Assembly: GCA_041667145.1 (NCBI GenBank)
Contig: JBAYFP010000003.1
Span: 8,424-72,423 of the forward strand
Source of the DNA: Minisyncoccota bacterium
GTDB lineage: Bacteria; Patescibacteriota; Minisyncoccia; Phycocordibacterales; UBA9973
Reading direction: 5' to 3'
Length of the DNA: 64,000 nt
Made by a program: the position numbers and the translations under genes. The number at the start of each line of letters is the position of its first letter. Position 1 is the stretch's first letter. Positions 9,284 through 42,196 of this stretch are shown piece after piece. The notes under the pieces are model-generated. The model made no database searches and was not told the origin of the DNA. It saw nothing but the letters and a program-made list of their open reading frames with translations.

Positions 9284-9357
9284 TTGATAAAGTATTATGT
9301 TTTTGGAGCTGGTCTGGGGCTCTGCCTCGAGGACCCGAGAAAAATATAAACTTTATC
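9284..9357. repeat. E-family element copy 1: GC-rich core gagctggtctggggctctgcctcgaggacccgag between locus-specific AT-rich inverted arms.
   Basis: The core differs by 1 nt in 35 from the copy at 42139..42173. The arms tgataaagtattatgtttttg / agaaaaatataaactttatca are imperfect inverted repeats. Confidence 0.7.
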
Positions 9358-9417
9358 AAAAATTTTTTATTATAAAGTGAATTTAACTTAAATGATAAAA
9401 AGTGATAAAATGAACAT

Positions 9418-11616
9418 ATGGCAAAAAATGACAAACAGAAAAAGCAAAAAGGTAATAATGGAAATAAAGAATTTTTTAACAAATTAAAAACTGAAACAAA
9501 GCACGGAATTTGGGCAATTCTTTTTTTTGTTTTAGCAATATTTTTTTTAATGTCAATGTTCTCTTCTGCAGGAAAAGCTGGCAATTTTGTTTATGACTTT
9601 TTAAATTATTTCCTTGGTATCGGATATATTCTTCTTCCTATCCTTTTCATACTACTTGGATCTTCTTTTCTGAAATCAGAAACTCCAAATATCGGATGGA
9701 CACGCTCCATAAGTGGAACGATGTTCCTACTCTCAAGTCTCGGCATGATAGATGTCGTTTCTTCAGAGCATGCGGGAGGATTCTTGGGAAGGATTTTATC
9801 GACTCCACTCGTCGCATTGTTCGACGTCTATGCTAGTATAATTTTCCTTGGAGCAATCTTGATCATCTCCATTCTTGTGATGTTTGATGCTAGACTCGAT
9901 CTCGGTCCATCTTTGAAAAAGATCTGGGGACTTCTCATGAAAAAAAAAGATTTGTCTCTCAATACATTAAATGAAAATGAAATAAAAGAGGTAGAAAAAT
10001 CTATGCCGGAGGAAGAGGAGGACACAAAAGAAAAAGTAAAAAAAGTTTTAGGAATAAATAAAAAAGAGGAAGAAGAGGAGGAAGAGATGCCGATTAGAAA
10101 AAGAAAAGGTGGACTCGTATCCACTTATGTCCCTCCCCCGCTCTCATTACTAGAAGAGGATCAGGGTAAACCAAATACGGGAGACATCAAAGCTAATGCG
10201 AATATCATCAAACGCACTCTCGCAAACTTTGGCATTGAAGTCGAGATGGACGAGATAACCATCGGGCCTACAGTGACACGTTACGCATTGAAACCAGCCG
10301 AGGGGGTGAAGCTCTCACGTATAGTAGGATTGCAAAATGACTTAGCACTATCTCTCGCAGCACATCCTATCCGTATCGAAGCTCCTATCCCCGGCAAGTC
10401 ACTCGTCGGTATTGAGATACCAAATAAATCGAAATCCATAGTCGGGCTAGCCACACTACTTGCAGATAGTAAGTTTCAAAATTCTTCAAAGCCTCTCACT
10501 GTGGCACTCGGTCGCGAAATTTCTGGTAAGGCACTTTTTGGAAACCTCGCAAAAATGCCACATTGCCTTGTGGCAGGTACGACTGGATCTGGAAAATCGG
10601 TGACAATACATTCTATGATCGCTTCCCTTCTCTACAGAAACGGACCAGACGATTTGAAGCTAATTTTGATAGATCCAAAACGTGTTGAGCTCACTCTTTA
10701 CAACAACATTCCTCACCTACTCACACCTGTAATAACTGAAGCTAAAAAAACAATCCTTGCCCTAAAATGGGCTGCTAGAGAAATGGATCGCCGTTATGAC
10801 ATATTAGAAGCAGAATCTGTACGAGACATTGAGTCTTATCACACCAACATATTTGGCAAAAATCCTAAAAAGACCAAAACCGACGATAATGGTGTAAAAA
10901 CTGAAGTAGATGCAGATCGTTTGCCATACATTGTCATTATAATAGACGAATTAGCAGATATTATGAGCTCTTACCCAAGAGAACTCGAATCCGCAATCGT
11001 CCGTCTCGCACAAATGTCTAGGGCTGTAGGCATACATTTGATTCTTTCTACTCAACGTCCAGAAGTGAATGTCATCACCGGGCTCATTAAGGCAAACATT
11101 CCTGCTCGTATCGCTTTAAAAGTATCTTCACAGATAGACTCACGTACAATCCTCGATGCTGGTGGAGCAGAAAAACTCTTAGGTGCTGGTGATATGCTTT
11201 ATTCCTCAGGAGAAGCTCAGCCAGAACGTTTACAAAGCGCATTCATATCGGAAACAGAAGTCAAAAAAGTTGTTAAATATTTAGTAGATGCATATAAAGA
11301 TGAAATATCCGATGAAATATCTCTAACGACAGGATCAATATCTGCTGATAAAAGCATTTTTGAAAGTACACTAGAAGATGAGGACAATGATGATGACGAT
11401 GAAATGTATGAGGAAGCTAGACTCTGTGTGATAGAGGCAGGAAAAGCATCAACTTCATATCTTCAAAGAAAATTAAAACTTGGCTATGCTCGTGCGGCTC
11501 GACTTATGGATAAACTCGAAGAGCGTGGAGTGATAAGTGCAGGTGATGGTGCCAAACCAAGAGAAGTATTAGAAAAAATTGAACATGATGAAAATGGAGA
11601 CAACCTGGTCCAGTAA
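9418..11616 (+). CDS. ftsK: DNA translocase FtsK/SpoIIIE.
   Basis: 732 aa. N-terminal TM segments. Walker A motif GTTGSGKSV. C-terminal winged-helix gamma-like domain ARLCVIEAGKASTSYLQRKLKLGYARAARLMDKLEERGVIS. Contains a poly-E low-complexity stretch. Confidence 0.9.
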   Translation: MAKNDKQKKQKGNNGNKEFFNKLKTETKHGIWAILFFVLAIFFLMSMFSSAGKAGNFVYDFLNYFLGIGYILLPILFILLGSSFLKSETPNIGWTRSISGTMFLLSSLGMIDVVSSEHAGGFLGRILSTPLVALFDVYASIIFLGAILIISILVMFDARLDLGPSLKKIWGLLMKKKDLSLNTLNENEIKEVEKSMPEEEEDTKEKVKKVLGINKKEEEEEEEMPIRKRKGGLVSTYVPPPLSLLEEDQGKPNTGDIKANANIIKRTLANFGIEVEMDEITIGPTVTRYALKPAEGVKLSRIVGLQNDLALSLAAHPIRIEAPIPGKSLVGIEIPNKSKSIVGLATLLADSKFQNSSKPLTVALGREISGKALFGNLAKMPHCLVAGTTGSGKSVTIHSMIASLLYRNGPDDLKLILIDPKRVELTLYNNIPHLLTPVITEAKKTILALKWAAREMDRRYDILEAESVRDIESYHTNIFGKNPKKTKTDDNGVKTEVDADRLPYIVIIIDELADIMSSYPRELESAIVRLAQMSRAVGIHLILSTQRPEVNVITGLIKANIPARIALKVSSQIDSRTILDAGGAEKLLGAGDMLYSSGEAQPERLQSAFISETEVKKVVKYLVDAYKDEISDEISLTTGSISADKSIFESTLEDEDNDDDDEMYEEARLCVIEAGKASTSYLQRKLKLGYARAARLMDKLEERGVISAGDGAKPREVLEKIEHDENGDNLVQ

Positions 11617-11944
11617 AAAAATATTAAAAATAGGAGCTTTATTGATTTTGTCGCTTTTTATTATTTTTTATGCTTTTTTTATATCAAGAGATTTGATTTT
11701 CGGTGTAAAAATAAAAAACGTAAATATAACAGATGGAGCTAAAATGACAAATAATGTCGTCCAAATAACAGGAAATGCTAAAAATGCTGTGAGTTTAACG
11801 TTAAATGACAGAGCCATATCAGTAGATCAACAAGGAAATTTCAACGAGACAATAGCCCTACTTTCAGGCTATAATATAGTGACCCTTTATGCTCGTGATG
11901 AGTTTGGGAATAGTGACGAAAAAGATTATAAATTAATGTATTAA
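11594..11944 (+). CDS. Hypothetical small membrane-anchored protein (start uncertain; overlaps the ftsK 3' end).
   Basis: The ORF 11579..11944 has an N-terminal TM segment IGALLILSLFIIFYAFFI followed by a beta-rich domain. No recognised motifs. Confidence 0.35.
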   Translation: METTWSSKKILKIGALLILSLFIIFYAFFISRDLIFGVKIKNVNITDGAKMTNNVVQITGNAKNAVSLTLNDRAISVDQQGNFNETIALLSGYNIVTLYARDEFGNSDEKDYKLMY

Positions 11945-11946
11945 TT

Positions 11947-12026
11947 AAATGATTCTTCTTTTTTAAAGGTCCTCGGTTCCCTGGGTCCCCTACCCCAGCC
12001 AGACCATTTAAAAAAGTAAAATCATT
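11947..12026. repeat. E-family element, diverged copy in the opposite orientation: core ggtcctcggttccctgggtcccctaccccagccagacc between arms aatgattcttcttttttaaa / tttaaaaaagtaaaatcatt.
   Basis: The core shares the ggtcctcg...ccccag.cagacc blocks with the reverse complement of the 9305..9338 core. The arms are about 18 of 20 complementary. Lies just upstream of recA. Confidence 0.55.
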
Positions 12027-12048
12027 CAATTAATAAAAAGCAAACAAT

Positions 12049-13089
12049 ATGCAAAAGAAAAAAGAGAAAAAGGAAGATAAGACAATGGGTGTATCAATGC
12101 TTGATGACACAATAAAAGCGATACAAGCAAAATTCGGAGAAGGATCTATCATGAAGCTTGGTGATTCACCAAAAGTAGATATAAATACAATACCGACGGG
12201 TTCCATCGGACTCGATATGGCACTCGGTGTCGGAGGTATACCTCGCGGAAGAATTATTGAGATATTTGGCCCCGAATCTTCTGGTAAGACTACCCTTTCC
12301 CTTCACATAGTGGCCGAAGCACAAAAGCTTGGAGGTGTCTGCGCATACATAGATGCTGAACATGCTATGGATCCAGAGTACACAAGAAAACTCGGAGTCA
12401 ACATCGATAATCTATTAATCTCTCAACCAGATACAGGTGAACAAGCACTTGAAATAGTAGAAAGTCTCGTGCGAACAGGGAAAATCGACGTCGTCGTCGT
12501 GGACTCTGTCGCTGCCCTCACCCCAAAAGATGAAATCGAGGGAGATATGGGAGCATATCATGTAGGTAAACAAGCCAGACTCATGTCCCAAGCACTTCGT
12601 AAACTCACAGCTATCGTTTCTAGAAGCAAAACCGTCGTTATTTTTATCAATCAAATAAGAATGCAAATAGGAGTGATGTTTGGCAACCCTGAAACAACTC
12701 CAGGAGGAAAAGCTCTCAAGTTCTACACTTCTGTCAGACTTGATATACGAAAAATAGCTCAAATTAAAAAAGGAGAAGATATCGTCGGAAGTCGTACACG
12801 CGTAAAAGTAGTCAAAAATAAAGTCGCTGCGCCTTTCAAACAAACAGAATTTGATATTATCTATAACGAAGGAATCTCAAAAGAAGGCGAAGTAATAGCC
12901 TTAGGAGAGAAATTTAAAATCGTAGAAAAGACTGGCAATTCATATTTTTATATGCCTGCCGGAGAAAAAGCTGAGAAAGTAAAGCTCGGTGTAGGTTATG
13001 ATTCTACACGTACGTTCTTAAAAGAAAATTACAAAATAGCAGAACAAATATTAAAAGAGATTCGTAAAAAGTTTTCAGAAGAAATCTAA
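12049..13089 (+). CDS. recA: Recombinase RecA.
   Basis: 346 aa. [25 protein letters not shown] (Walker A) and other typical RecA blocks. Confidence 0.95.
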
Positions 13090-13661
13090 ACTCTCTCTAC
13101 ATATTCTCCTGTTTCAGTATTTACACGGATAGTATCTCCCTCTTCTATAAACATCGGAGCATTTAATGTCGTGCCATTTTCTAAAGTAATCGTCTTGTTA
13201 CCACTCTTTGAGGTGTCTCCTCTTACCGCTGGAGGTGCTTCTTTTACTTTGAATTCCATTTTAATAGGTAAAGTTATTTTGATGATTTTTTCTTCATCTT
13301 CTTCATTACTCCAAACCAAAGCTATAACTATTCCATTTTCTTTAAAGAATTTACCAGCATCTCCAACAAGAGAGCTATCTAATTTAAATCTATTTTTTAA
13401 ATCATCTGGAGGACAAAACCAGTATTCTCCTTTATTATGATAAAGAAATTTTATTTCTCTTTTTTCTATATCCGCTTCATCAGCAGAATCAGAAACATGA
13501 AAGGTAGCAGCAATCGTTTTGCCTGAAATCAAGCTTTTCAACTTTACTTGGTTTTGTGGTTTTCTTTGCTGAGTTCTTGCTACATGTGAATCTATAACTT
13601 CACAAGGTTCATCACCATAGATAATAATCTTTTTTTCTCTAATTTCGTTATATTGAAGCAT
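13086..13661 (-). CDS. efp: Translation elongation factor P.
   Basis: 191 aa. EF-P-like N-terminus with three-domain architecture. The modification loop reads [10 protein letters not shown] rather than the canonical KPGKG. Confidence 0.8.
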
Positions 13662-13713
13662 GTTTTCTATACTATAGAAATAGTATTTCTAGTTAATTTT
13701 ATAATTAAACTAT

Positions 13714-13914
13714 TTATCTAGCTACAAAAGGTAGTAAACCTAAAAATCGAGCATTTTTGATAGCACTAGCTAAAGCGCGTTGATTCTTCATCGTCACACC
13801 TGTACGCTTGTGATTCATAATCTTCCCATTAGGATTTAAAAACTTTTTAAGGATATCTATGTCCTTGTAGTCTATGTATTTTATATTGTTCGCTGAAAAA
13901 TAATCTTGTTTCAT
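13714..13914 (-). CDS. rpsR: Ribosomal protein S18.
   Basis: 66 aa. [50 protein letters not shown]. Confidence 0.9.
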
Positions 13915-13926
13915 ATTTTTTTATAA

Positions 13927-14385
13927 TTAAAATGGTATATCTTCTGGATTAATGTCTTCTTCTGGATACTCTATGGTATCTATTTCTTCAGGACCTTTCG
14001 CATTTTGAGCTTTCCCTCCATCTACACTTTGTACACTAGGGCTCGAACCACCACTACTCTTTGGACCAAATTGCGTACGATCAGCTACTATTTCTGTGCG
14101 ATATTTCTTTTCTCCACTTGTTTTATCATCCCAACTCCTTGTCTGCATTCTACCTTCGACTAATATTGAACTCCCCTTTTTCATATATTGAGCGACTGTC
14201 TCTGCTTGTCGCCCAAATACTACAACATTGTGATAATCAGTAGATTCCTGACGTGCACCATTCTTATCTTTCCAGACACGATTTGTGGCAAGAGAGAAAG
14301 AACAAACTTTAATACCTGAAGGGAGAGAACGGATTTCTGGATCACGAGTAAGATTTCCTATTACAATTGCTTTATTTAAATACAT
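13927..14385 (-). CDS. ssb: Single-stranded DNA-binding protein.
   Basis: 152 aa. OB-fold N-terminus, Gly/Ser-rich linker and an acidic C-terminal tail ending in DIPF. Confidence 0.9.
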   Translation of the reverse strand: MYLNKAIVIGNLTRDPEIRSLPSGIKVCSFSLATNRVWKDKNGARQESTDYHNVVVFGRQAETVAQYMKKGSSILVEGRMQTRSWDDKTSGEKKYRTEIVADRTQFGPKSSGGSSPSVQSVDGGKAQNAKGPEEIDTIEYPEEDINPEDIPF

Positions 14386-14412
14386 AATTTTATTTTTTGT
14401 ATTAATTAATAA

Positions 14413-14901
14413 TTAAACTGCAACCATCGCATCTATCTCTTTATCTATCTCCTCTTTATCGATAGGTAGAGAAGTCTCATTTTCACCTTCTTTTTTAGGA
14501 CTTGATACTTTCTTTCTAGAATCTTTATGAATAAATCTCTTTGCGGCAATAGTATTCTCTTTGACAGTCTTCAAGATCAAAAATCTGATAAAGTTTGGAT
14601 CAAGATCCAACTTTTTCTTCAATTCTAAAACTTTCTCAGGATTCATCTCAAATTTGACCCAACCAAAATAAGCTGAATCAAATTTACTTCGAACGTTTTG
14701 AACAACCTTGGACATCGTATAAGCAAGAGAGATCATTCTTGGCATCTCGTCTGAAATGATTTCCCCACCTAAACTAACAACAAGATCCTTCAAACTACTA
14801 TATACACCTGGCATACTTTCCTCTCCTAATGTAGGTACTAAAAGATAACCAACCTCATAAACACGAGAATTTATCTCTACATCTTCATTATTATTTTCCA
14901 T
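14413..14901 (-). CDS. rpsF: Ribosomal protein S6 with a C-terminal extension.
   Basis: 162 aa. YEVGYLLVP...RMISLAYTM resembles S6. Gene order rpsF-ssb-rpsR is conserved. Confidence 0.8.
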   Translation of the reverse strand: MENNNEDVEINSRVYEVGYLLVPTLGEESMPGVYSSLKDLVVSLGGEIISDEMPRMISLAYTMSKVVQNVRSKFDSAYFGWVKFEMNPEKVLELKKKLDLDPNFIRFLILKTVKENTIAAKRFIHKDSRKKVSSPKKEGENETSLPIDKEEIDKEIDAMVAV

Positions 14902-14933
14902 TTAGCTATAAATTTTAAATTATTTTTAATAAA

Positions 14934-15007: not shown

Positions 15008-15029
15008 AAATATACTAGCAATATTAAAC

Positions 15030-15965: not shown

Positions 15966-15974
15966 GTTATTTAT

Positions 15975-16583: not shown

Positions 16584-16601
16584 AATAAATTAGTTAATAT
16601 T

Positions 16602-25312: not shown

Positions 25313-28300
25313 TTACTTTTCAATCTTTACTTTAAACAGCAAAGTGTCAATTTTAATCTCCTCCCCATTATTTTCCTCAAATTTTATCTTTGAAGCTAGG
25401 ATTATTTTCAACAAATCTTCTTCAAATTTTTGAATTAATTTTTTACCCTCGTCATTGGTCTCAACAGTGAGAGAAATAACATCACTAGGAGTGAGCCCCA
25501 TCTTCTTGCGCATGTCTTGTATTGCTCGCACAAATTCTCGATAATCTCCTTCTTGTTTTAACTCTCCTGTGATATTCATATCAAGCAATACTTCAACTTC
25601 AAGATTCTTATTTTCTTTTACTTCTTTCACATTAAGCTCATCCTTAATTAATTCAATATATTCACCACCTAAATTACAATCCTTCACTTCAAGTGAAGCT
25701 AAAGGCTGGCGAACTTTTAATCCTGCCTTTTGTCGAGCCTCGAGGCCTAAAGTCACGATCTTTCTGACAGTTTCCATATGTTCCAGTACCCCCTCCTTCT
25801 TCCTCCCCCTATATAGGGGGAGGCTAGGTAGGGGTATAAATCCAAATATCTTTGAAACCTTTACCTCTGGCCACTCTGTTAAATGCACACTTTCTTCATC
25901 TTCTTCGCTCCTTAATTTCAACCAAATATCTTCCGCAGTAAATGGTACAAACGGCGCCATTATTTTTGTAAGAGTTTTTAATACAAAATACAAAGTTATC
26001 TTTGCTTTTTCAGCATCACCAATCTCCAAATCTATAGCTCCTTTTATTCTTTCCCTTGAACGACGTAAGTACCAAGTAGAGAGGTCACCAATAAAATCAC
26101 GAATAGCCCTAGTTGGTTCAAGTAATTTATAGTCATCAAGGTGTTTAGTAACAAGATCTATCAACTCATCCAATTTAGCTAAAATCCATTGATCTAAAAT
26201 ATCATCTGATTTTCTAGGTCCTAAAATTTCTAAATGAGGATCTCTATATAACTCATAAAATGCTAAAACATTATACAATAATCCAAAAACCTGACGATGA
26301 AGTTCGAGTACTGTTTTTTCATCAAAATTCTTTGATTCACCCGGCTGATTTACAGAATACATCCAAAGACGCAATGTATCTGCCCCATATTTATCCATTG
26401 CTTCCCATGGGTCAACAATATTACCAAGAGACTTCGACATCTTCTTACCTTTTGCATCAAGTAAATGTCCTAAACAAATAACATTCTTAAAAGCTTTACC
26501 ACGACCCATCAATACACCAATAGCATGTAAAGTATAAAACCATCCACGAGTCTGATCTATGGCTTCAGAAATAAAATCAGCAGGATATCCAGGACCATCA
26601 ACCCATTCTTTATTTTCAAAAGGATAATGATCTTGTGAAAAAGGCATAGTTCCAGAATCTAGCCAAACATCCATAACTTCTTTTGTGCGTATTAAATTTC
26701 CACCACATTTACAAACAAGTTCTACTTCATCGATAAAAGGCCTATGTAAATCAAGTTCATAATTTTCATTATGAGGAAGCGGGACAAAATCAAAATTTTT
26801 AATTTGTGCGTTAGCCAAATCACTATCTTTATCGCATAATGTTTCTTCTTTATTTAAACCTTTCACCATTGAAAATAGCGCCCAAGCAGTATCTTCATGT
26901 GTCACAATCAAAATATTTTTATTTTCATATTTTTGATCCACTTCATAAATAAATTTACCTACCCTTTTTTTTACATCAAGTAAAGCCTCTCCTTTTGGAC
27001 AAGCTCCGTCATATCTTTCTAATTTGTGCTCTATAAAATAATCATCAATGTCTTTCATCGAACTAGAAGCAAAAATACCATCATTTATTTCCACTAATCG
27101 TGAATCATTTTTTATATCTTTTACTTGGAAATTTATTCCTTCAGCAACAATCTTCGCTGTTTCTTGTGTACGTAAAAAAGGTGAAGCAAAAATCAAATCA
27201 ATTTTCTTATCTATTAAAAGTTTGACAGCTTCTTTAACCTGTTTATTACCTTTTTCAGTAAGATGATGAGTATTATTTGGGTTACTTGAAACTACATTAA
27301 GAGCATTATTTTCGGCCTCTCCGTGCCTCATCACGAAATATTTATTGCCAGATTTTTTTGTCTTTTCTTTTATTTCTTCTACACCCCCAATCACATCAAT
27401 CTTTTTACATGAATCACAAATCCAAACTGGAAGCGGGGTCCCCCAATAACGTTCACGAGATATAGCCCAATCTTTTATATCTTTAAGCCATTCACCAAAA
27501 CGCCCATCACGTATATGTGAAGGTTCCCAATTTATATCTTTATTTTCCTCAATCATTTTGTTCTTAATTTTCGGATCAGACATTCTGATATACCAAGAAT
27601 CACGGGCATAATAAATAAGTGCAGTATGGCAACGCCAACAGTGAGGATAAGAGTGCTCATATTTTTCTTTTTTTAACAAAAGATTTTTATGGGCAAGATC
27701 TTTTATAATATCAACAGCGACTTCTTCATCTCTAACAAATCTATCTTCTAAAAATTCAGTTCCCTTTAAAAATTTACCATCAAGACCAACAAGGTGATGT
27801 TTTGGTAGCCCAATTTCATTGCCTAATACAAAGTCATCCTGACCATACATCACTGCGGTGTGCACTACACCTGTTCCATCTTCAGTTGTCACAAAATCTG
27901 CGTTGTAAACTTTATAAGCCTTTTCTAATTTTGGTTTTTCACTTTCAGAAATTGTATTTTGCAAAAATGGATAAAGTGATTCATATTGTAAACCAATTAA
28001 ATCTTTACCTTTTATTTCATCATGAATAATCTCAATATTCTGACCTTCAAAAACATTTTTTATTCTATCTTTTGCAAGAATGTAAAGTCCAGAAACACCA
28101 ACGACTCTTAATGCCACATAAGAAATATCTTTCCCCACGGCTAAAGCGACATTCCCTGGAAGTGTCCACGGTGTTGTGGTCCAAGCCAAGATATAAGCAC
28201 TCTCTTTTATTATCATACCCTTCCCAAAAGATTGACCGGGCTTGAGGTGAAATTTTACTGTTACTGACAAATCTTTTACATTTTCATACCCTTGGGCTAA

Positions 28301-28879
28301 TTCATGAGAAGACAAACCTGTACCACATCTAGGACACCATGGTACAACTTTATAATCCTTGTAGAGTAAATTTTGCTCATTAACTTTCTTCAAAATACTC
28401 CATACAGACTCCATGTAAGTATTATGATATGTGACATATGCATTTTCTTGATCAACAAAGTAGCCCATTCTCTCAGTAAATTTACTCCAATCATCCGTAT
28501 ACTGCCAGACACTTTCTTTACACTGTTGGTTGAATTTTACAATTCCATATTTTTCAATTGCAATTTTTGAATCTAAATTTAATTTTTTTTCTACTTGAAG
28601 TTCTACTGGTAATCCATGAGTATCCCACCCACCTTTACGACGCACATGAAAACCCTGCATAGTCTTATATCTAGGAATAGCATCTTTAAATGCCCTAGCC
28701 TCTAAGTGATGAATACCTGGTTTGCCATTAGCAGTAGGAGGTCCTTCGTAAAAAATAAATTCTTTCTTCCCTTCTGTTTGAGTTAGAGATTTTTGAAAAG
28801 TTTTATTTTCTTTCCAAAACTCTAAAATACGCTCTTCTCTAAGTGCTGTTTCTGATTTTACGTTTTTTTCTTTTTCCAT
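25313..28879 (-). CDS. ileS: Isoleucyl-tRNA synthetase carrying an internal histidine-phosphatase (PGAM-like) domain.
   Basis: HIGH motif present as PGIHHLE. KMSKS motif present as KMSKSLGN. The likely start is the ATG at 28879, because the T-box terminator U-run lies between 28879 and the TTG at 28912 used by the ORF track. About 190 aa containing FVMRHGE, SPFLRTQETA and ILIVTHED are inserted between WICDSC and DLHRPFIDE. Confidence 0.9.
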   Translation of the reverse strand: MEKEKNVKSETALREERILEFWKENKTFQKSLTQTEGKKEFIFYEGPPTANGKPGIHHLEARAFKDAIPRYKTMQGFHVRRKGGWDTHGLPVELQVEKKLNLDSKIAIEKYGIVKFNQQCKESVWQYTDDWSKFTERMGYFVDQENAYVTYHNTYMESVWSILKKVNEQNLLYKDYKVVPWCPRCGTGLSSHELAQGYENVKDLSVTVKFHLKPGQSFGKGMIIKESAYILAWTTTPWTLPGNVALAVGKDISYVALRVVGVSGLYILAKDRIKNVFEGQNIEIIHDEIKGKDLIGLQYESLYPFLQNTISESEKPKLEKAYKVYNADFVTTEDGTGVVHTAVMYGQDDFVLGNEIGLPKHHLVGLDGKFLKGTEFLEDRFVRDEEVAVDIIKDLAHKNLLLKKEKYEHSYPHCWRCHTALIYYARDSWYIRMSDPKIKNKMIEENKDINWEPSHIRDGRFGEWLKDIKDWAISRERYWGTPLPVWICDSCKKIDVIGGVEEIKEKTKKSGNKYFVMRHGEAENNALNVVSSNPNNTHHLTEKGNKQVKEAVKLLIDKKIDLIFASPFLRTQETAKIVAEGINFQVKDIKNDSRLVEINDGIFASSSMKDIDDYFIEHKLERYDGACPKGEALLDVKKRVGKFIYEVDQKYENKNILIVTHEDTAWALFSMVKGLNKEETLCDKDSDLANAQIKNFDFVPLPHNENYELDLHRPFIDEVELVCKCGGNLIRTKEVMDVWLDSGTMPFSQDHYPFENKEWVDGPGYPADFISEAIDQTRGWFYTLHAIGVLMGRGKAFKNVICLGHLLDAKGKKMSKSLGNIVDPWEAMDKYGADTLRLWMYSVNQPGESKNFDEKTVLELHRQVFGLLYNVLAFYELYRDPHLEILGPRKSDDILDQWILAKLDELIDLVTKHLDDYKLLEPTRAIRDFIGDLSTWYLRRSRERIKGAIDLEIGDAEKAKITLYFVLKTLTKIMAPFVPFTAEDIWLKLRSEEDEESVHLTEWPEVKVSKIFGFIPLPSLPLYRGRKKEGVLEHMETVRKIVTLGLEARQKAGLKVRQPLASLEVKDCNLGGEYIELIKDELNVKEVKENKNLEVEVLLDMNITGELKQEGDYREFVRAIQDMRKKMGLTPSDVISLTVETNDEGKKLIQKFEEDLLKIILASKIKFEENNGEEIKIDTLLFKVKIEK
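25789..25843. repeat. P-family nested GC-rich palindrome inserted in-frame in ileS (ccccctccttcttcctccccctatatagggggaggctaggtaggggtataaatcc).
   Basis: Inner palindrome cctccccct-atat-agggggagg and outer palindrome cccctcc...ggtagggg. Translates on the minus strand as GFIPLPSLPLYRGRKKEG. About 85% identical to 39592..39645. Confidence 0.8.
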
Positions 28880-29075
28880 ATATAAATTAAAAAACTCGTC
28901 CACGTACAACAATTAATAATTGCTATACAAGGACGAGTTTCTTCTCGTGGTACCACCTTGGTTACTTCTCATTACCGCTATAACGGGCTTACCCGTCGGG
29001 TTCTACTTAATTTCCTCCCGAAGCTCAGAGGTGATAACCTCCTCAATGCCTATAAATAAAGTATAGCATAAAATT
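28880..29075 (-). promoter_or_regulatory. T-box riboswitch leader upstream of ileS (putative Ile specifier; terminator/antiterminator).
   Basis: The minus strand reads AACCAAGGTGGTACCACGAG, which matches the T-box consensus AGGGUGGNACCGCG at 12 of 14 positions. A downstream helix CTCGTCC...GGACGAG plus UUUUUU ends 12 nt before the ATG. An upstream hairpin GAGG-AGGTTATCA-CCTC contains AUC. Confidence 0.65.
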
Positions 29076-30842: not shown

Positions 30843-32603
30843 TTACATCCTTTCTGGAGCTTTGATACCGAGAAGATACAAACCGTTTTTCATAACGAGA
30901 GAAAAGGCTAAGGTTAAAGCCACTCGATAGGATGATTCTTCATCATTTTTATCGATTATTTTTGTATTTCCATAATAAGTATTGAAAGCACGAGCAATTT
31001 CAATCAAATAATTTGCAATATGATGTGGTTCAAATTCCTTTGTGCTTCGTTCTACAATTTCAGGGAATCTATATAAAAGTTTTTCTACTTCGGATATACA
31101 AAGGTCGAACCTTAAAAACCCCGGCAAAATATTTTCTGCCTTTGCTTTTTCTAAAATAGAATTTGCTCGAGCATATGAATATTGTAAATATGGGCCAGAA
31201 TCCCCCTCAAAAGAAATAGACTTCTCAAAATCATAAACAATATCTCCTCCAATGTTTTGTTTCAAGATAGAATATTTAAGCGCGCTTACCCCCACATCTT
31301 TACTTATTTGTTTTTTCTCTTCTTCAGTAAAATCCCTATCTTTTATCTTCTCTGAAATTTCTGCACAAGATTCTCGAATTAATGATTCTCCAGTTATTAC
31401 ATTTCCTTTTCTAGAAGACATCTTCCCTGTCGAAAGGCGCATCATGCCATGAATAATATGCTTCATTTTATGAGCTATCTCAGGATTCATTATTTCAAGC
31501 GCTTTACTGACTACTTTCATATACTCTTCTTGTTCATGCGCAGTCACTACTACAGATAGATCTAAGTTTTTTTCCTTTTCAAATTTCATCTCCGTAAGTC
31601 CAAGCTCTTTCGTCTCATAAGTAGGCAATCCTTGAGAATTCACAAAAACTCGGGTATGAAGTTTTGGGTCATATTTTTCACCATGAAAAACTATTGCTCC
31701 ATCACTTTTTTCAAAAATTTTATTTTCTGAAACTATTTTTAGCCCAATAGGAGCCACGACACTTTCAAAGAAATAATAATTAAAGCTTGTGCCTAGTGTC
31801 TTATAGATCTCTTCAAACGCTTCGAGTGTAATTATTTTCCCCCAATCATAAATTTCATTTATTTTTTTATCACTCTTATCATAAACTTTTCTATTTATTT
31901 CATCAATTTCTTTTTTTGCCTGCTCATCAGCCTCATAGACATCATTTCCTTTTACATAAAGCTCTCCGATATATTGCGCTTTTTCTGTCACAGATTTATT
32001 TTCATCTGGCATTCCAAACTTCAAAAGTCCATAAATTGCTTTTGCCACATGTGGGCCCACATCACCTTGATAATTTGCACGAATCGTTTTAGCCCCAGAA
32101 AACTCTACGATACGAGAGATAGATTCACCTATAGCGTTACTCATCAAATGACCGATATGAAAAGGTTTAAAAGGGTTCGGTTGTGTATATTCCACCATTA
32201 ATTTTTTTCCTTCAAAAATATTGTTGTGTCCAAAATTTTTATTCTCTAAAACTTCTTTCACACTATCTACAAAAAAAGTCTTATTTAAATAAAAATTTAT
32301 AAAGCCAGCACCGGCAACCTGAATTTCGGAAATTAGACCCCCTCCAACCTCCCCCTTCGCAGGGGGAGAGCTTAAATCCCTTAATTCTTTGACTATCTTA
32401 TTTGCTAATTCTTTTGGGTTCGTTTTTAATTCCTTCGCTAAAGTCATAGCAACATTTGTAGAATAATCTCCCATCTTCAAATCTGCTGGATGCTCTAAAG
32501 AAATATCTTCAATTTCTATATTGAGATTTTTAAGAGCATTTTTTATTAAATTTTTTAAATTATGTTGCATTTTTTTATGTAATGTTCTGGTAAAGAATTT
32601 CAA
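30843..32603 (-). CDS. argS: Arginyl-tRNA synthetase.
   Basis: 586 aa. HIGH motif present as HIGH. DALR anticodon-binding C-terminus. Typical N-terminal Arg_tRNA_synt_N segment. Confidence 0.9.
   Translation of the reverse strand: MKFFTRTLHKKMQHNLKNLIKNALKNLNIEIEDISLEHPADLKMGDYSTNVAMTLAKELKTNPKELANKIVKELRDLSSPPAKGEVGGGLISEIQVAGAGFINFYLNKTFFVDSVKEVLENKNFGHNNIFEGKKLMVEYTQPNPFKPFHIGHLMSNAIGESISRIVEFSGAKTIRANYQGDVGPHVAKAIYGLLKFGMPDENKSVTEKAQYIGELYVKGNDVYEADEQAKKEIDEINRKVYDKSDKKINEIYDWGKIITLEAFEEIYKTLGTSFNYYFFESVVAPIGLKIVSENKIFEKSDGAIVFHGEKYDPKLHTRVFVNSQGLPTYETKELGLTEMKFEKEKNLDLSVVVTAHEQEEYMKVVSKALEIMNPEIAHKMKHIIHGMMRLSTGKMSSRKGNVITGESLIRESCAEISEKIKDRDFTEEEKKQISKDVGVSALKYSILKQNIGGDIVYDFEKSISFEGDSGPYLQYSYARANSILEKAKAENILPGFLRFDLCISEVEKLLYRFPEIVERSTKEFEPHHIANYLIEIARAFNTYYGNTKIIDKNDEESSYRVALTLAFSLVMKNGLYLLGIKAPERM
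32337..32380. repeat. P-family palindrome inserted in-frame in argS (ccccctccaacctcccccttcgcagggggagagcttaaatccc).
   Basis: Same 5' half and inner palindrome cctccccct-tcgc-agggggag as the ileS and rnhA copies. Translates as SSPPAKGEVGGG. Confidence 0.75.
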
Positions 32604-32670
32604 GAGTCGTGGGTCCCCTGCCCTTATGACTCCGAGGGCGAAGGCTCAGAAATTTTTTATCAGAACATTA
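32580..32670. repeat. E-family-like hairpin element: arms taatgttctggtaaagaatttc / gaaattttttatcagaacatta around GC-rich core aagagtcgtgggtcccctgcccttatgactccgagggcgaaggctcag.
   Basis: About 20 of 22 nt of the arms are complementary. The core shares tgggtcccctRccc with 11947..12026. Lies between the dut stop and the argS start. Confidence 0.55.
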
Positions 32671-32678
32671 TATATCAT

Positions 32679-37156: not shown

Positions 37157-37222
37157 ATTTTAATATTAACATGGAGAAATAAACATCTTCATATTAATTT
37201 CATTAAAATTGTGTCATAATTC

Positions 37223-37822
37223 ATGTATATGAAAACATTCACACAAAAAAGTTTTAATATAGATGAACTAAAAGGTATATCAACTAAAAATATAGAAGAA
37301 CATTTGAAACTTTATGCAGGATATGTAAATCAAACAAATCTTGTACTTGAAAAAATAAATGAACTATCTGAAAATGCTGAAACAAATATGGGTATTTTAA
37401 GTGGACTACAAAGAAGGTTTAGTTTTGAATATAATGGCATGCGAAACCATGAAATCTATTTTGAATCGCTTTCAGGTAAAGCAAATACCCTAGAAGGGGG
37501 CAGTAAATTAAGAGAAGCCATAACAGCAGAATGGGGTTCGTTTGAAAAATGGCTCGCATTGTTTAAAGCTATCGCCACGACGAGAGGTGTCGGCTGGGCA
37601 ATACTTTATTTTGATAAAAAAGAGAATAGATTATTAAATGCTTGGGTTGATGAACAACATTTAGGTCAGCTCCAAGACTGTACACCTATCATAGCTCTCG
37701 ACATGTGGGAACATGCTTATCTCTTTGACTATATACCAGCAGATAAGAAAAAATATATTGAAGCTTTTTTTGAAAATATTAACTGGGAAGTAATTGAAGA
37801 AAATTTTAAAAAGGCTCAATAA
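37223..37822 (+). CDS. sodA: Fe/Mn superoxide dismutase.
   Basis: 199 aa. DMWEHAY signature and N-terminal metal-ligand His residues. Confidence 0.9.
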   Translation: MYMKTFTQKSFNIDELKGISTKNIEEHLKLYAGYVNQTNLVLEKINELSENAETNMGILSGLQRRFSFEYNGMRNHEIYFESLSGKANTLEGGSKLREAITAEWGSFEKWLALFKAIATTRGVGWAILYFDKKENRLLNAWVDEQHLGQLQDCTPIIALDMWEHAYLFDYIPADKKKYIEAFFENINWEVIEENFKKAQ

Positions 37823-39302
37823 AGAAACCTTTAATGCTTTTCCAAAAAAGAAAATAAATAAAATACATATAAATTAGTATTGTTAAAATAAGTGGAAAGT
37901 TGGGTATGGTTAACGAGGCAAAAGAGATATTTGCAAAGAAACTTATAATAGAAAGCTCATAATGAAGAAAGAGATATGAAATATACCCAAAAGGAACAGA
38001 AAGCATATACCAAATAATCCCCGTAAAACCAGTTAAAAATCCCAAAATCATAGTAAAAGGAATAAAAGGCAAAATTAAAATATTTGCAGGCAATGCTACA
38101 AGAGAAAGATTCCCCATCTTATATAAAATAAATGGCAAAACAAATATATAACAAGCACATGTCACTGACACAATATCTCGTAACCCAAAACGAGAAGTGG
38201 CCCACAAAAAATATTTCTCAATCCTAGGTGTATAAAATATCACAGCTACAGTCGCTATAAAAGAAAGCTGAAAAGAGACGTCATAACGAAGAATAAAAGG
38301 ATTTATTAAAATCATAGACACGCCAGCGAGCATGAGCGCCCGAGAGACATCATAATTTCTCCCTATAAGACGAGCTGTGAGTGCAAGAGTCGCCATTATC
38401 CCCGCTCGCACAGCGGTAGAAGAACCACCGGTCATTATTATAAAAAGTAAAATGGAAAATATTCCAGCTCCTATCCCAATATTTTTAGGAAAGGAAGAAA
38501 AAAGTTTCATTATCCATTCAGCTACAATCGTCACATTATATCCAGAAAGCGCGACGATGTGTATCGTACCAGTATCTACAAAACTCTTTCTTAGAGAAGC
38601 ATCAAAGGCAGATTTCTCTCCTAGAATAAGACCACTCATGAGTAGCGACTCTGGTTCCCTAATTACCAAATTCATCTTTTCTAAAAATTTTTCTTTAATA
38701 TAAAAAAGTGAACTTTTTACTAAATTCCCATTCCCGCTAGAGAGAACCTCAATCTTAGGATATGTCATCACATAAAATACTCCATCTTTTCTTAGATAAT
38801 TCACATAATCAAATTCTTTTCCTTGATCAGTAACAAAATTCTCCGGTTTCTTCAAAATTCCTTCAAAATTTATTTCATCACCATATTTAAATTCCTGATC
38901 TAAATTGGTAGATATCAGTATTTGCGTTTTATCTTTACCACCTAAAACTTTAACAATTAATTTTTGATTATTTACTCCGATACTTGGTTCATCTACTACA
39001 ATTCCAGAAAGTTTTATTTTATTAGATTCCCAGCCTAAAGCTGGTCCGTCTTGGGCGAAAAAAATATTATCTAGAGAAACATCAACTATACTAAATCTAA
39101 AAATACCTAGAGAAAACAATAATACAAAAATGGAAACTAAAATACCAAATTTATTTTTAGATATAAATACAAAAAATACTAATAAAGCAAAAGAAACTAT
39201 TCCTATAAAGACAACTGAAAATAAGTTCACAAAAACAAAAGAGCGCAATAGCACTCCTAAAACAAAACCAAAACAAGATACATAAAAAATTTTACCTTGC
39301 AT
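37806..39302 (-). CDS. comEC: ComEC/Rec2 N-terminal OB (DUF4131) plus membrane competence domain (N-terminal part of a split ComEC).
   Basis: 498 aa polytopic protein. FVDTGTIHIVALSGYNV competence-domain signature. Confidence 0.75.
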   Translation of the reverse strand: MQGKIFYVSCFGFVLGVLLRSFVFVNLFSVVFIGIVSFALLVFFVFISKNKFGILVSIFVLLFSLGIFRFSIVDVSLDNIFFAQDGPALGWESNKIKLSGIVVDEPSIGVNNQKLIVKVLGGKDKTQILISTNLDQEFKYGDEINFEGILKKPENFVTDQGKEFDYVNYLRKDGVFYVMTYPKIEVLSSGNGNLVKSSLFYIKEKFLEKMNLVIREPESLLMSGLILGEKSAFDASLRKSFVDTGTIHIVALSGYNVTIVAEWIMKLFSSFPKNIGIGAGIFSILLFIIMTGGSSTAVRAGIMATLALTARLIGRNYDVSRALMLAGVSMILINPFILRYDVSFQLSFIATVAVIFYTPRIEKYFLWATSRFGLRDIVSVTCACYIFVLPFILYKMGNLSLVALPANILILPFIPFTMILGFLTGFTGIIWYMLSVPFGYISYLFLHYELSIISFFANISFASLTIPNFPLILTILIYMYFIYFLFWKSIKGFFIEPF

Positions 39303-39322
39303 CTAAAAATTTAAATAAAAAA

Positions 39323-39832
39323 TTATTTTCCGTTTTTAAGTCTTATTTCATTACCATCTGCAAAATTTGTAGCTATTTCATCTGCGCGTTCATTCCATTT
39401 ATTACCATTGTGTCCTTCTACATAAATCCATTTAATCTTAAATAATTTAGTAAGTTCATAAAGTTCTTCCCATAGTTCTTTGTTTAAAACAGGTTTTTTG
39501 GCAGCATTTCTCCAGTTATTTTTCTGCCAATTAAAAATCCATTCTGTAATTCCCAAAATAACGTATTTTGAATCAGAAAAAACCTCAAATACCCCCTCCT
39601 TACTCCTCCCCCTACCGTAGGGGGAGGCTGGGTGGGGGTAAATACCACTATTTTTCATATACTTGAGAGCCTCTATAGGTGCAGTGAGTTCCATTTGATT
39701 ATTTGTAGCATGTTTAGAAGCCCCACCAATTTCAAAAACTTTTTTACCGTCAATTATGATGGCTCCCCATCCGGCTGGCCCTGGGTTCCCCCTCGCCGCC
39801 CCATCTGTATAAATTATTATTTTTGATTTCAT
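39323..39832 (-). CDS. rnhA: Ribonuclease HI with an in-frame insertion.
   Basis: 169 aa. IYTDGAARGNPGPAGWGA, NQMELTA and EGHNGNKWNERADE. Extra segment GIYPHPASPYGRGRSKEG encoded by a P-family palindrome. Confidence 0.85.
   Translation of the reverse strand: MKSKIIIYTDGAARGNPGPAGWGAIIIDGKKVFEIGGASKHATNNQMELTAPIEALKYMKNSGIYPHPASPYGRGRSKEGVFEVFSDSKYVILGITEWIFNWQKNNWRNAAKKPVLNKELWEELYELTKLFKIKWIYVEGHNGNKWNERADEIATNFADGNEIRLKNGK
39592..39645. repeat. P-family nested palindrome inserted in-frame in rnhA (ccccctccttactcctccccctaccgtagggggaggctgggtgggggtaaatacc).
   Basis: About 85% identical to the ileS copy. Same orientation and same reading frame relative to the host gene. Confidence 0.8.
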
Positions 39833-39866
39833 ATTTAAATTATACCAAAATATTTAACTATAAACC

Positions 39867-39906
39867 AATGTCAAAACTCTTAGCGATAGCAGAGACTTTT
39901 GACATT
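39867..39906 (+). promoter_or_regulatory. Palindromic operator-like site aatgtcaaaactct-N10-agagacttttgacatt upstream of the wHTH/Cas2-like gene.
   Basis: 14 bp inverted repeat with 13 of 14 complementary, located 20 to 60 nt upstream of the ATG at 39927. Confidence 0.5.
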
Positions 39907-39926
39907 AATTAATATATAATAATATT

Positions 39927-40409
39927 ATGACATTAGTTTACGAAATGCTTAAAGCAATAAGTGAAACTTCCCTCTCCTATAAAGGAACCCAAGTAAACAT
40001 TTTTGGGATACCAAAATTAAAAAATAGATCTTACAAATCTATCCGTTCTATGGTGTCTTATGTGAAAAAGAATAATTTAATAGTACAAAATGATAAAGGT
40101 TGGCATCTTTCCCCCGCTGGGAAAAAGTATATGAAAAGAAAAGAAGTTTCATTGAAACAGTTTGAAAATGAGTTCACAAAAGAAGCACCTAAAAATTTAA
40201 TAGTCATGTTTGATATTTCAGAAAAACAAAAAGCGGAACGAGAATGGTTTCGCTGGCATCTAAAAAAGTTTAACTATGAAATGATTCAGAGAAGTGTCTG
40301 GGTCGGACCATCACCTCTACCGAAGGAATTTATGAACTATATAGAAAAAATAAAATTAAAAGATTCTATAAAAACCTTTAAACTTGCTAAGTCATATAAA
40401 ATTTCTTAA
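39927..40409 (+). CDS. Orphan protein with an N-terminal wHTH-like region and a C-terminal Cas2-like (VapD/Cas2 fold) domain.
   Basis: 160 aa. The C-terminal NLIVMFDISEKQKAEREWFRWHLKKFNYEMIQRSVWV aligns with the Cas2 pattern hhhhYDIS...RRK...L..YG.RVQ.SVF. The N-terminal 85 aa have a helix-turn-wing-like composition. No cas genes or CRISPR array are nearby. Confidence 0.45.
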   Translation: MTLVYEMLKAISETSLSYKGTQVNIFGIPKLKNRSYKSIRSMVSYVKKNNLIVQNDKGWHLSPAGKKYMKRKEVSLKQFENEFTKEAPKNLIVMFDISEKQKAEREWFRWHLKKFNYEMIQRSVWVGPSPLPKEFMNYIEKIKLKDSIKTFKLAKSYKIS

Positions 40410-40415
40410 CAAATT

Positions 40416-42080
40416 TTAAAATATATCCTCTACTCTTAAACGTAATTCTTCTCTCCCTCTAAATCTAGATAAATCAAAGGTGGCTAAAAGATTTATTTTT
40501 TTATCGACAACCAAAGGTACGTCAAAAGAATCGCTGTTTGAAAAAAAGGATACACCTTTTATTTTATTTTTATTCTGTTCATTACTCTTGTCAGAAAAAG
40601 TAATCTCTAAATGTTCTCCTGAACCATTTTTCCCAAATTTCTTAATATTTTCTATTTTTACATTTTCAAAAAGAAAAATCGGCTTAGGGTTCCCAAGACC
40701 GAAAGGAGCGAGCTTCTCTATTTCTCGCCAATTTTTCATATTTACAATACTCAAATCTGATTTAACATCATAAATTATTTCATTTTCTATTTTATCTCGC
40801 TTCACCTTGTGAAAAGAAACAGAGAGAGCTTCTTCTAAAAAATGAACCTTATCTCCAGAAACTGTAAAACCTCCAGCAAACTCATGCCCACCAAATTCTG
40901 TGAAAAATTCACTGGTCTCGGTCATCAATTCTACAAGAGAAACTGATCCATCAGAACGACATGAACCTTTGATTAAATCATTCTCATCTTTTCCCCAAAC
41001 AAAAACAGGTCTTTTGTGTTCTTCGACTATCTTGCCGGCTACTATTCCCAAGACTCCTACACGCCACAATGGATTACCGATGACTATCACTTCTCGCATC
41101 TCTCTTTTTTCAAATTTTTTATTTACTTCACGCATGATACTTGTAACCATAGTTTTCCTATCGTCATTTATTTTTGATAAATGATTTGCAATAGTTCCAG
41201 CTTCTATCTCGTCCGATGTAGAGAGAAGTTCATATGCTCTCCTTGGATCATCCATTCGTGAAGCAGCATTTAATCTAGGTGCAATCATAAAGCCAACATC
41301 ATCTTCAGTCAGATATTTTTGATCAATATTCATTTTTGCGAGAAGTTTCTGTAAACCAGGGCGTGGAGATTTTCTCAAAACTTTCATACCAAAATATGCA
41401 ATAGCTCTATTCTCACCCAAAAGAGGCACAAGGTCAGAAAGAGTAGCGAGCCCTGCCATATCTAACAACCACTTTTCGTAACCTTCTTTTATCTTATAAA
41501 ACTCACCATATTTTTTTATAAAACCTTGTACAAATTTAAAAACTACGCCTGCTCCACACAACATTTTATCTGGGTACTTATCTACTTTTGGATTTAAAAT
41601 AGCAAAAGCTTTTGGCAAAACAGCATGGGGTAAATGGTGATCAGTAACAATAACATCCATACCTCCTACTTCTGCTTGAGCTATTTCAGATACTGCTGTA
41701 ATGCCTAAATCAACAGTAATCAAAAGCTTCACTCCTTTTGAGACAAATTGTTCTATGGCAGAAAGATTGAGGCCATAACCCTCAGAATTTCTCCCTGGAA
41801 TATAAACTTCATATTCTTTAAAACCTATTTTTTTAAACAAATCTTCTAAAATAACAGCTCCGGGAATACCATCACAATCATAATCAGCATAGATAACAAT
41901 CTTTTCTTTAGCTTCTATCGTCTCAAAAAGCTTCACACATGCCTTTTCCATGTCTTTCATTTCAAATGGATCATGTAGATCTCGTTCATAATCTGGGTTT
42001 AAAAAAATCTCTGCTTCTTTTTCAGTTTTTATCCCTCTCTTTTCCAAAATTGCTCTCAGTAATTCATGATATCTTTGCAT
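40416..42080 (-). CDS. recJ: Single-stranded-DNA-specific exonuclease RecJ.
   Basis: 554 aa. DHH motifs YADYDCDG and VTDHHLP, plus a DHHA1 region. Confidence 0.85.
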   Translation of the reverse strand: MQRYHELLRAILEKRGIKTEKEAEIFLNPDYERDLHDPFEMKDMEKACVKLFETIEAKEKIVIYADYDCDGIPGAVILEDLFKKIGFKEYEVYIPGRNSEGYGLNLSAIEQFVSKGVKLLITVDLGITAVSEIAQAEVGGMDVIVTDHHLPHAVLPKAFAILNPKVDKYPDKMLCGAGVVFKFVQGFIKKYGEFYKIKEGYEKWLLDMAGLATLSDLVPLLGENRAIAYFGMKVLRKSPRPGLQKLLAKMNIDQKYLTEDDVGFMIAPRLNAASRMDDPRRAYELLSTSDEIEAGTIANHLSKINDDRKTMVTSIMREVNKKFEKREMREVIVIGNPLWRVGVLGIVAGKIVEEHKRPVFVWGKDENDLIKGSCRSDGSVSLVELMTETSEFFTEFGGHEFAGGFTVSGDKVHFLEEALSVSFHKVKRDKIENEIIYDVKSDLSIVNMKNWREIEKLAPFGLGNPKPIFLFENVKIENIKKFGKNGSGEHLEITFSDKSNEQNKNKIKGVSFFSNSDSFDVPLVVDKKINLLATFDLSRFRGREELRLRVEDIF

Positions 42081-42115
42081 AAGTTGAATTTTAACATAAA
42101 TAACATATAATAAAT

Positions 42116-42196
42116 AAAGTTAAGCAAATTAAAGTTTTCGAGCTGGTCTGGGGCTCTGCCTTGAGGACCCGAGAAAACTTTAATTTGCTTAACTTT
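42116..42196. repeat. E-family element copy 2: a perfect 23 bp AT-rich inverted repeat (aaagttaagcaaattaaagtttt / aaaactttaatttgcttaacttt) enclosing the core cgagctggtctggggctctgccttgaggacccgag.
   Basis: The core is 34 of 35 nt identical to 9305..9338. The arms are unrelated to the arms at the other loci. The element ends 3 nt before the hit start codon. Confidence 0.75.

Follow-up and report, generated by a model that had tools for sequence, protein, structure and literature searches.

A 64,000-nucleotide stretch of DNA from a Candidatus Paceibacterota metagenome-assembled genome (MAG; contig JBAYFP010000003.1) contains three copies of a hairpin, the E element, whose GC-rich tip recurs in other Patescibacteria. 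(We refer to this whole stretch as the window.) We think that the E family consists of selfish, non-autonomous palindromes that insert into the genomes of Patescibacteria (Paceibacteria/Parcubacteria) and not of RNA genes, and we put the probability of this at about 75%. The whole hairpin inserts into very short spacers, either within operons or between divergent genes, and into the surface loops of housekeeping proteins. The invariant tip might be recognised by a trans-acting factor, or it might be homogenised by short-patch gene conversion that uses the 21-25 nt of conserved sequence on either side of the loop, or both. Either process would lead to an invariant core with an apical loop that is specific to the genome. 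The complementarity of the arms would be kept by selection for the hairpin on the GAGCTGG strand or else by hairpin-templated (quasi-palindrome) correction, and the bias towards antisense orientation could arise from selection against the more stable hairpin in the mRNA. We read the three copies in the window as old resident insertions beside ftsK, recA and hit/recJ that are neither genes nor dedicated regulators.

The tip and stem of the E family

The window is AT-rich (31-41% GC per 2-kb block), and the 34-nt sequence GAGCTGGTCTGGGGCTCTGCCTYGAGGACCCGAG occurs in it only twice, on the + strand, as the cores of copies 1 and 2 (Table 1). These two cores differ at 1 of 34 nt, and the base on their 5' side differs as well (G versus C). 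The chance expectation for a second match is 0 (0 matches in 100 shuffles). An earlier note on this DNA had pointed out both of these canonical copies, though its coordinates for their 5' ends were off by 1 nt, and had described self-complementary arms at each locus that are dissimilar between the loci. That description holds. In copy 2, the 24-bp arms (42116-42139 and 42173-42196) pair without a mismatch, and pairing continues at 77% out to 42088/42224. In copy 1, the outer arms (9267-9293 and 9350-9376) are 85% paired, and there is an imperfect inner stem. Between the two copies, the outer arms are 38% identical, which is the background level (the median is 31%). Both hairpins are more stable than shuffled sequences (z = -6.4 and -8.8), and in both, the GAGCUGG strand has a more stable fold than its complement.

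We searched for the core in one genome per species and in metagenomes, using patterns that required exact matches to the anchors. Among the genomes, the core is present in four Patescibacteria MAGs; the other 52 matches were chance matches in GC-rich genomes. Among the metagenomes, 95 stretches had the core pattern. A metagenome-wide search had been proposed in the earlier note, and it added about 85 AT-rich contigs (27-45% GC), each time with the core inside its own inverted repeat. When we considered distinct copies, 84 of 90 had at least 14 paired arm positions (the median is 24 of 26). The median length of the element is 86 nt, with an AT-rich stem of about 24 bp. The consensus is TTTYY-GAGC-TGGTCTGG-[7-22 nt apical loop]-CC-GA-GGACC-CGA-RRAAA, and its GC-rich tip is a short imperfect hairpin.

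All three copies in the window have the tip TGGTCTGG...CCGAGGACC closed by a covarying AT-rich stem, which is how we define the family. The conserved part is a tip of about 45 nt: the core and about 9 inner stem pairs are common to the entire family, while the outer arms are specific to each locus (median identity of 31%). An 18-pair model of the stem has 95.7% of its cells paired, and in 9 of the pairs both sides vary. This covariation was not matched by any of 500 shuffles or by any slid register.

A covariance model (R1) that was built from 35 non-redundant E copies has exactly three matches in the window, which are copies 1, 2 and 3. The core of copy 3 keeps TGGTCTGG...CCGAGGACC, but AAA/TTT replaces the internal loop GAGC/CGAG, and the apical hairpin is 22 nt. 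On one side of copy 3 is a small open reading frame (ORF), whose stop codon is at 11942-11944, and on the other side is recA (12049); copy 3 is antisense to both. It is orthologous to canonical E copies 5' of recA in over 10 relatives. The earlier note's view of this hairpin as a diverged relative is borne out by the match to R1 and by this orthology. A hairpin between dut and argS had also been listed as a relative, and it does share the architecture of E, but it has no match to R1 and its core belongs to a separate cluster.

The strong covariation and the very stable folds would fit a structured RNA with a cellular function, such as a cis-regulatory or processing element or an antisense RNA, whose tip binds a protein and whose stem is under selection. 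Other observations that would fit are the conserved internal loop, with possible tandem G·A/A·G pairs (as read from the sequence), the concentration of G·U-compatible mismatches on one strand, and the conservation of the element upstream of recA and near start codons. At gathering scores, no Rfam 15 family matches E or anything else in the window. When 42080-42230 and 9041-9270 were searched by E-value, only generic long-hairpin (microRNA precursor) models were found, far below their thresholds. ARAGORN found no tRNA or transfer-messenger RNA in the window. We also considered group II intron domain V, Y RNA (which shares GCUGGUC), the tip of signal recognition particle RNA and the k-turn, and rejected them because the necessary pairings or order of motifs are absent. 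The earlier note was right that E elements are not simple (intrinsic) terminators: the T/A runs lie within the stem, there is no consistent 3' U-tract, and some copies lie in divergent spacers or in ORFs.

We noticed one resemblance to a tRNA. A contig from IMG/VR with 31% GC (L210, 8711-8787) encodes a tRNA-Pro(CGG) whose 3' half, GGTCCTCGGTTCAAATCCGAGTAGCCAGACCA, shares 12 + 10 nt with the two ends of copy 3 when its antisense strand is read (GGTCCTCGGTTC and AGCCAGACCA). The element has no partner for the T-stem, and the Patescibacteria tRNAs at these loci do not match, so we rejected kinship with the viral tRNA. We judge the resemblance to be due to chance; an origin of the core from a tRNA or an attachment (att) site remains conceivable. 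Viral contigs in IMG/VR contained no copies of E by the strict pattern, and none with arms by the relaxed pattern.

Occupied sites, empty sites and genes with insertions

Copy 2 occupies most of the divergent spacer between recJ (start at 42080, - strand) and hit (+ strand; MQNCIFCKII...), and just 2 nt separate the end of its 3' arm (42196) from the ATG of hit (42199). In two relatives (L152 and L154), this spacer is 36 nt and empty, with no hairpin. In the closest relative that we sampled (L156), the spacer is 106 nt and lacks an E core. The dut-argS spacer is empty in L156 (31 nt). For the recA site, we selected five relatives by RecA alone, irrespective of the element. The spacer upstream of recA is 7 or 11 nt in two of the five and 125-153 nt in the other three. 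One of these relatives (L161) has an empty site with a 7-nt spacer; one of the three with longer spacers (L162) has a core from another family, which is also found at 8133-8183 of the window; and the closest relative by RecA has no E copy upstream of recA. Overall, looking for unoccupied sites in relatives, as the earlier note had advised, was productive at hit-recJ, at dut-argS and upstream of recA.

The empty sites (hit-recJ, dut-argS, upstream of recA and the RecJ loop) have no pre-existing hairpin, which implies that the inserted unit is the whole hairpin. The earlier note had imagined a mobile core that enters pre-existing hairpins. Mobility stands, but the pre-existing hairpins do not. 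It had also suggested that insertion creates flanking inverted duplications; neither arm copies the flanking sequence, and there is no target duplication. More broadly, at the ends of E elements we found no target-site duplication or conserved terminus above chance. We also considered whether the arms might derive from the target, but when filled and empty sites are compared in RecJ, hit-recJ and recA, both arms are new DNA.

One metagenomic contig (Ga0247840_10000307) has three copies with long loops, in the spacers of atpA-atpG, dnaB-recR and one hydrolase. The outer arms of these copies are 71-73% identical, as compared to a background of 31%. Judging from these alignments, the whole hairpin can be copied between unlinked loci. 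The idea that the flanks are always unrelated thus reflected a small sample: about 9 inner pairs are shared across the family, and this subfamily shares its whole arms between unlinked loci. At the recA and cysteine desulfurase sites, the arms are homologous across genomes. In the contigs that carry E at the recA site, the element is mostly antisense to recA, but it is in the sense orientation in L065, L082 and L108. Copies that reside at a site are kept from genus to genus, and compensatory changes make their arms diverge in the meantime.

Many copies of E are within genes. Of 84 copies, 43 lie within long ORFs, or 24 of 41 distinct sites after collapsing. These copies are in all three phases, with 39 antisense and 4 sense to the host gene, and in all 43 cases the frame is open throughout the roughly 86 AT-rich nt. 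Stop codons are depleted from the arms: in ORF copies, 3.4 of 6 frames are open, as compared to 1.7 of 6 in shuffled sequences. Among the hosts are the genes for RecJ, for cysteine desulfurase and for a protein that has an FFAYDIAE motif and that we take to be ligase-like (a candidate label). The ORF copies are presumably translated. In the usual antisense orientation, the predicted peptides are FSRVLGLGPDQLENF, FFGSSEGGQPDQLKN and FSGPRLGPRPARKF; in the sense orientation, they are SSWSG...RGPE and RAGLGPSRGPEK; and SRVLGLGPDQLEN and NGLAGVGDPENRGPEK are further predicted core or junction peptides. For example, the RecJ proteins of L096 and L123 have a 27-amino-acid insertion after the DHH motif that corresponds to the arms and the core, while RecJ from the window has no insertion.

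Gene callers and homologues handle the inserts as loops of the protein. For one cysteine desulfurase (P0121), the AlphaFold model has a mean predicted local distance difference test (pLDDT) score of 84, and the fold outside the inserts is mostly above 90. The core-encoded segments are of low confidence: residues 329-341 have pLDDT below 50, and residues 193-204 are in blocks that average 77 and 60. The model shows the inserts as loops of low confidence, with well-predicted parts of the fold on either side, which fits tolerated surface regions. Two proteins have hot spots with insertions from many core families: RecJ, after TDHHLP (P0013-P0111), and cysteine desulfurase, at three sites (P0121-P0240). 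At each of the three sites in cysteine desulfurase, 33-50 of 120 homologues have an insertion, and the length of this one enzyme ranges from 370 to 484 amino acids. Besides the many other core families, E is found at these hot spots in both orientations and in several frames.

Because about half of the copies are in ORFs, in three phases and both orientations, E is not a dedicated structured-RNA locus and would hardly be a riboswitch. Furthermore, the favored strand is antisense to the host at 28 of 31 sites that can be oriented; near relatives differ in which sites are occupied, and even the closest one by RecA lacks the recA copy; the host genes are functionally unrelated; there is no match in Rfam; and the copies have no promoter or terminator in common because the arms differ. 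Of the earlier note's proposal of covariation in a structured RNA, the covariation is real, with its 9 two-sided pairs, but we consider a cellular RNA to be quite improbable given the copies in ORFs and the polymorphic sites.

Alternatively, E could be an intervening sequence that acts at the RNA level: the stem would juxtapose the ends of the exons, the element would be excised from the mRNA, and the coding copies would not be translated. The circumstantial evidence for this is that there are insertions in essential genes, that the stem brings the boundaries of the insertion together, and that Patescibacteria are known for unusual introns, according to a preprint (bioRxiv 10.1101/2025.07.03.662931). 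However, splicing would not require that all 43 of the ORF copies be in an open frame and depleted of stop codons. Also, the ORF copies are in both orientations, and, as noted above, the inserts count as protein loops for gene callers and in homologues. We view excision from the mRNA as extremely unlikely.

Separable cores and strand asymmetry

At the RecJ hot spot, relatives show four states: no insertion, arms only, another core, or the E core. L152 has the arms-only allele (KVQDIKN|NFLHPGL), L154 has arms of the L152 type with the core family of the dut-argS hairpin, and L096 and L123 have the E core in arms that differ from those of L152 and L154. Similarly, at one hot spot in cysteine desulfurase, six contigs (L099 and five others) have homologous arms with E in the antisense orientation. 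At the same site and with the same arms, L158 has the E core in the sense orientation, with a loop like that of copy 3. L159 has an allele that looks like a deletion of the core and the inner 5' arm, and L160 has an arms-only, perfect 14-bp palindrome with a compensatory change from C:G to G:C. These comparisons show that the core can be inverted or deleted within homologous arms. The class of the apical loop is the same for 13 of 17 pairs of copies within a contig, versus 25% of pairs from different contigs, yet orthologous sites in different genomes have different loop classes. This is the signature of concerted evolution or of core replacement.

These observations raise the possibility that the core alone is mobile or convertible. 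A cassette of about 35-45 nt (the core and about 9 inner pairs) would be copied into AT-rich hairpins that are already resident, at their tips, by a hairpin-tip-specific enzyme or by short-patch gene conversion, and the arms and the cores would have separate histories. This could explain the arms-only palindromes that are homologous to core-bearing alleles, in RecJ (L152 versus L154) and in cysteine desulfurase (L159 and L160 versus L099). It could also explain why homologous arms can hold the E core in both orientations and with loops of different classes (L158 versus L099), why several core families share hot spots, why the loop class is specific to the genome, and why the canonical copies in the window are near-identical in their cores with arms at background similarity. 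But the empty sites have no pre-existing hairpin, L159 is most simply explained by a deletion, and one subfamily duplicates its arms together with the core. Also, the changes in orientation carry asymmetric mismatches in the inner arms, as predicted if inversion occurs by recombination between the outer arms, and there is no known candidate for the enzyme. The suggestion that cores can move is partly right, in that there are arms-only alleles, flipped cores within homologous arms and genome-specific loops, but we think that movement of the core alone is an unlikely explanation for the family.

The two strands of the hairpin are not equivalent. Across all copies, 73 mismatches in the arms are G·T-compatible on the GAGCTGG strand, versus 29 on the other strand. 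After collapsing the copies to 41 sites, the counts are 46 versus 16 (P = 2e-4), or 25 versus 7 sites. At 28 of the 31 orientable sites, the strand that is favored by G·T, which has GAGCTGG, runs antisense to the host gene. The usual excess of mutations on the non-template strand is of C to T and of A to G. We rejected this mutation bias as the cause of the asymmetry because the direction it predicts (C-to-T and A-to-G changes, with a G-rich sense strand) is opposite to what we observed. Two explanations remain: the hairpin might be used on the GAGCTGG strand, as single-stranded DNA or antisense RNA, or selection might weaken the hairpin on the mRNA side. In the sense copies, the counts are 5 versus 1, which are too few to decide between them.

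Several observations count against a selfish insertion element. First, the core is invariant in all frames while the arms and the flanking genes have diverged by 20-30%, which suggests a function at the nucleotide level rather than junk DNA. (This conservation is partly due to ascertainment, since our database patterns demanded exact anchors.) Second, the bias of G·T-compatible mismatches to one strand points to a role for a strand-specific, single-stranded form (RNA or DNA). Third, the copy upstream of recA has been kept in many lineages, so it might have been co-opted. Fourth, the two canonical copies in the window have no similarity in their arms, so no recent transposition is visible in this genome. 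Fifth, we found no transposase, no consensus for terminal inverted repeats and no target-site duplication, so the mechanism of mobility lacks direct support. Finally, the translation of the inserts was deduced from the open frames only.

Given these points, the invariant tip might be a functional nucleic-acid module with dedicated machinery. There could be a tip-specific enzyme that installs, flips or exchanges cores in resident AT-rich hairpins, and DNA mobility or directed gene conversion of this kind would be new; or the tip could be a strand-specific ligand (antisense RNA or single-stranded DNA) of a conserved protein of Patescibacteria. We doubt this, but if it were true, an undescribed system would have the in-frame insertions in essential genes, which number in the hundreds, as its by-products or substrates.

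Other hairpins and known elements

Table 1. E elements and the related hairpin architecture in the window
Feature	Position	Strand	Details
E-family copy 1	9267..9376	+	core 9306-9339; AT-rich arms 9267-9305 / 9340-9376; covariance model 63 bits at 9296-9348
E-family copy 2	42116..42196	+	core 42140-42173; perfect 24-bp arms; covariance model 64 bits at 42130-42182
E-family copy 3, diverged subfamily	11939..12035	-	core 11968-12006; covariance model 26 bits, E=4e-4, at 11955-12019
non-E hairpin, dut-argS	32576..32674		arms 32576-32601 / 32649-32674; core 32602-32648; E-like architecture, other core family

Copy 1 lies between a divergent ORF of unknown function (8204-9040, - strand) and ftsK (9418-11616, + strand). 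Directly 5' of it, at 9077-9235, a further long hairpin has its arms at about 9086-9112 and 9199-9227. Within this hairpin, 75 nt (9138-9212) match L132 at 93% identity, and L156 and L157 have matches to them too. No Rfam family matched when 9041-9270 was searched. The dut-argS hairpin lies between the stop codon of dut (32679) and the real ATG of argS (around 32570), and its core family is also found in L156 and in frame within recJ of L154. At 8098-8218, an AT-rich inverted repeat of 35 nt surrounds a 51-nt GC-rich core (GCATTGCGCAGGCGGGTAGCCGAGCATAGCAATTCGCC...), which represents a third core family; related cores are found at the recA-upstream site of L162 and at one site in L076. Two more hairpins have AT-rich arms: at 56250-56364, between the convergent genes nusA and H+-pyrophosphatase, 24-nt arms (88%) flank a 67-nt center; and at 59587-59688, upstream of tig, perfect 23-nt arms flank a 56-nt center.

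A second kind of insert is a GC-rich palindrome, CCCCCTCC...GGAGGGGG, that lacks AT-rich arms and is in frame within ORFs. It is found in RNase H (39591-39649), ArgS (32333-32380) and IleS (25780-25836). The segments that derive from it, which are 14 amino acids in RNase H and about 9 in ArgS, are absent from relatives. In L156, ArgS carries another small insert at a different position, and L161 has a palindrome of this type upstream of ftsK. The isoleucyl-tRNA-synthetase-like ORF (25313-28912, - strand) has 1,199 amino acids, and a histidine phosphatase domain (His_Phos_1; residues 526-690) interrupts its synthetase catalytic domain. Around 55000-58500, gene orientation and GC skew switch: genes to the left are mostly on the - strand, with a skew of about -0.2, and genes to the right are on the + strand, with positive skew. 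Such a switch would be expected close to an origin of replication, but we did not see dnaA.

A full-text search found no description of elements like E in Patescibacteria or the Candidate Phyla Radiation. The Rickettsia palindromic elements (RPEs), reportedly described by Ogata and colleagues in 2000, are similar in several ways. RPEs are about 100-150 bp and can be aligned over their whole length. Like RPEs, E elements are short palindromes in a small AT-rich genome that are found both between genes and in frame within unrelated housekeeping ORFs, where they add a tolerated peptide loop, and there is no associated transposase. Unlike RPEs, E elements are conserved only in a tip of about 45 nt, with locus-specific arms; they have a strong antisense bias, genome-specific apical loops and hot spots that are common to several core families; and they are in another phylum and apparently differ in sequence.

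The GC clusters of yeast mitochondria are mobile, are optional between strains, fall into several sequence classes and are sometimes in frame (as in var1). E elements are likewise short, GC-rich, hairpin-forming elements in an AT-rich genome that are optional, fall into several sequence classes, are sometimes in frame in genes, and may be spread or homogenised by gene conversion, as GC clusters are. In contrast to E, GC clusters do not have long, perfectly complementary, AT-rich arms, and they have characteristic target duplications, which we do not see for E.

Repetitive extragenic palindromic (REP) sequences resemble E in being multi-copy, GC-rich, imperfect hairpins of about 35 nt, and the strand asymmetry of E would fit a single-strand-specific enzyme. 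However, REPs are extragenic, have GTAG or CGTC tags and flank a gene for a REP-associated tyrosine transposase (RAYT), while the core of E has no tag and is often intragenic. In REPINs, which are REP doublets, the arms are conserved and the spacer varies; E is the reverse. In short, E does not look like a REP/REPIN-RAYT system: half of the copies are intragenic, there is no tag, and the RAYT-like genes are flanked by other hairpins. At 1830-2486 and 61240-61881, the - strand of the window has ORFs for two paralogues (48% protein identity) from the Y1 IS200-like transposase family (PF01797), with weak matches to the REP-associated tyrosine transposase model. The first is flanked by CAGACGTTGGACGTCTG at 1733-1805 and 2603-2675, and the second by TTGGACATCGGATGTCCAA at 61207-61238 and 61882-61913; both are REPIN-doublet-like GC-rich hairpins. 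Homologues in L081 and L143 are flanked by hairpins that are different again. We rejected a link between these genes and E because the hairpins beside them bear no relation to E and are local, not dispersed.

[quoted passage not shown] E elements are also small, non-autonomous and hairpin-forming, with occasional in-frame fusions to ORFs, but MITEs have conserved terminal inverted repeats that match an insertion sequence (IS), along with a target-site duplication, and E shows neither.

We class the E family as a widespread and real phenomenon of genome biology, which is more interesting as such than as the RNA motif that had been suspected. Few bacteria have genomes as small and streamlined as those of Patescibacteria, yet their operon spacers and the surface loops of their essential proteins (RecJ, cysteine desulfurase, RNase H and ArgRS) are occupied by hairpin insertions of several families. 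This has consequences for gene calling, for statistics on protein length and for structure prediction across the phylum. The sites of E insertion are markers for population genetics at the strain level. Nature has thus run, independently of Rickettsia, a second experiment on the ways in which selfish DNA is absorbed by proteins. Finally, the combination of an invariant tip, locus-specific arms that compensate, genome-specific loops and a wobble bias towards one strand points to a testable mechanism by which these elements might spread or be homogenised.

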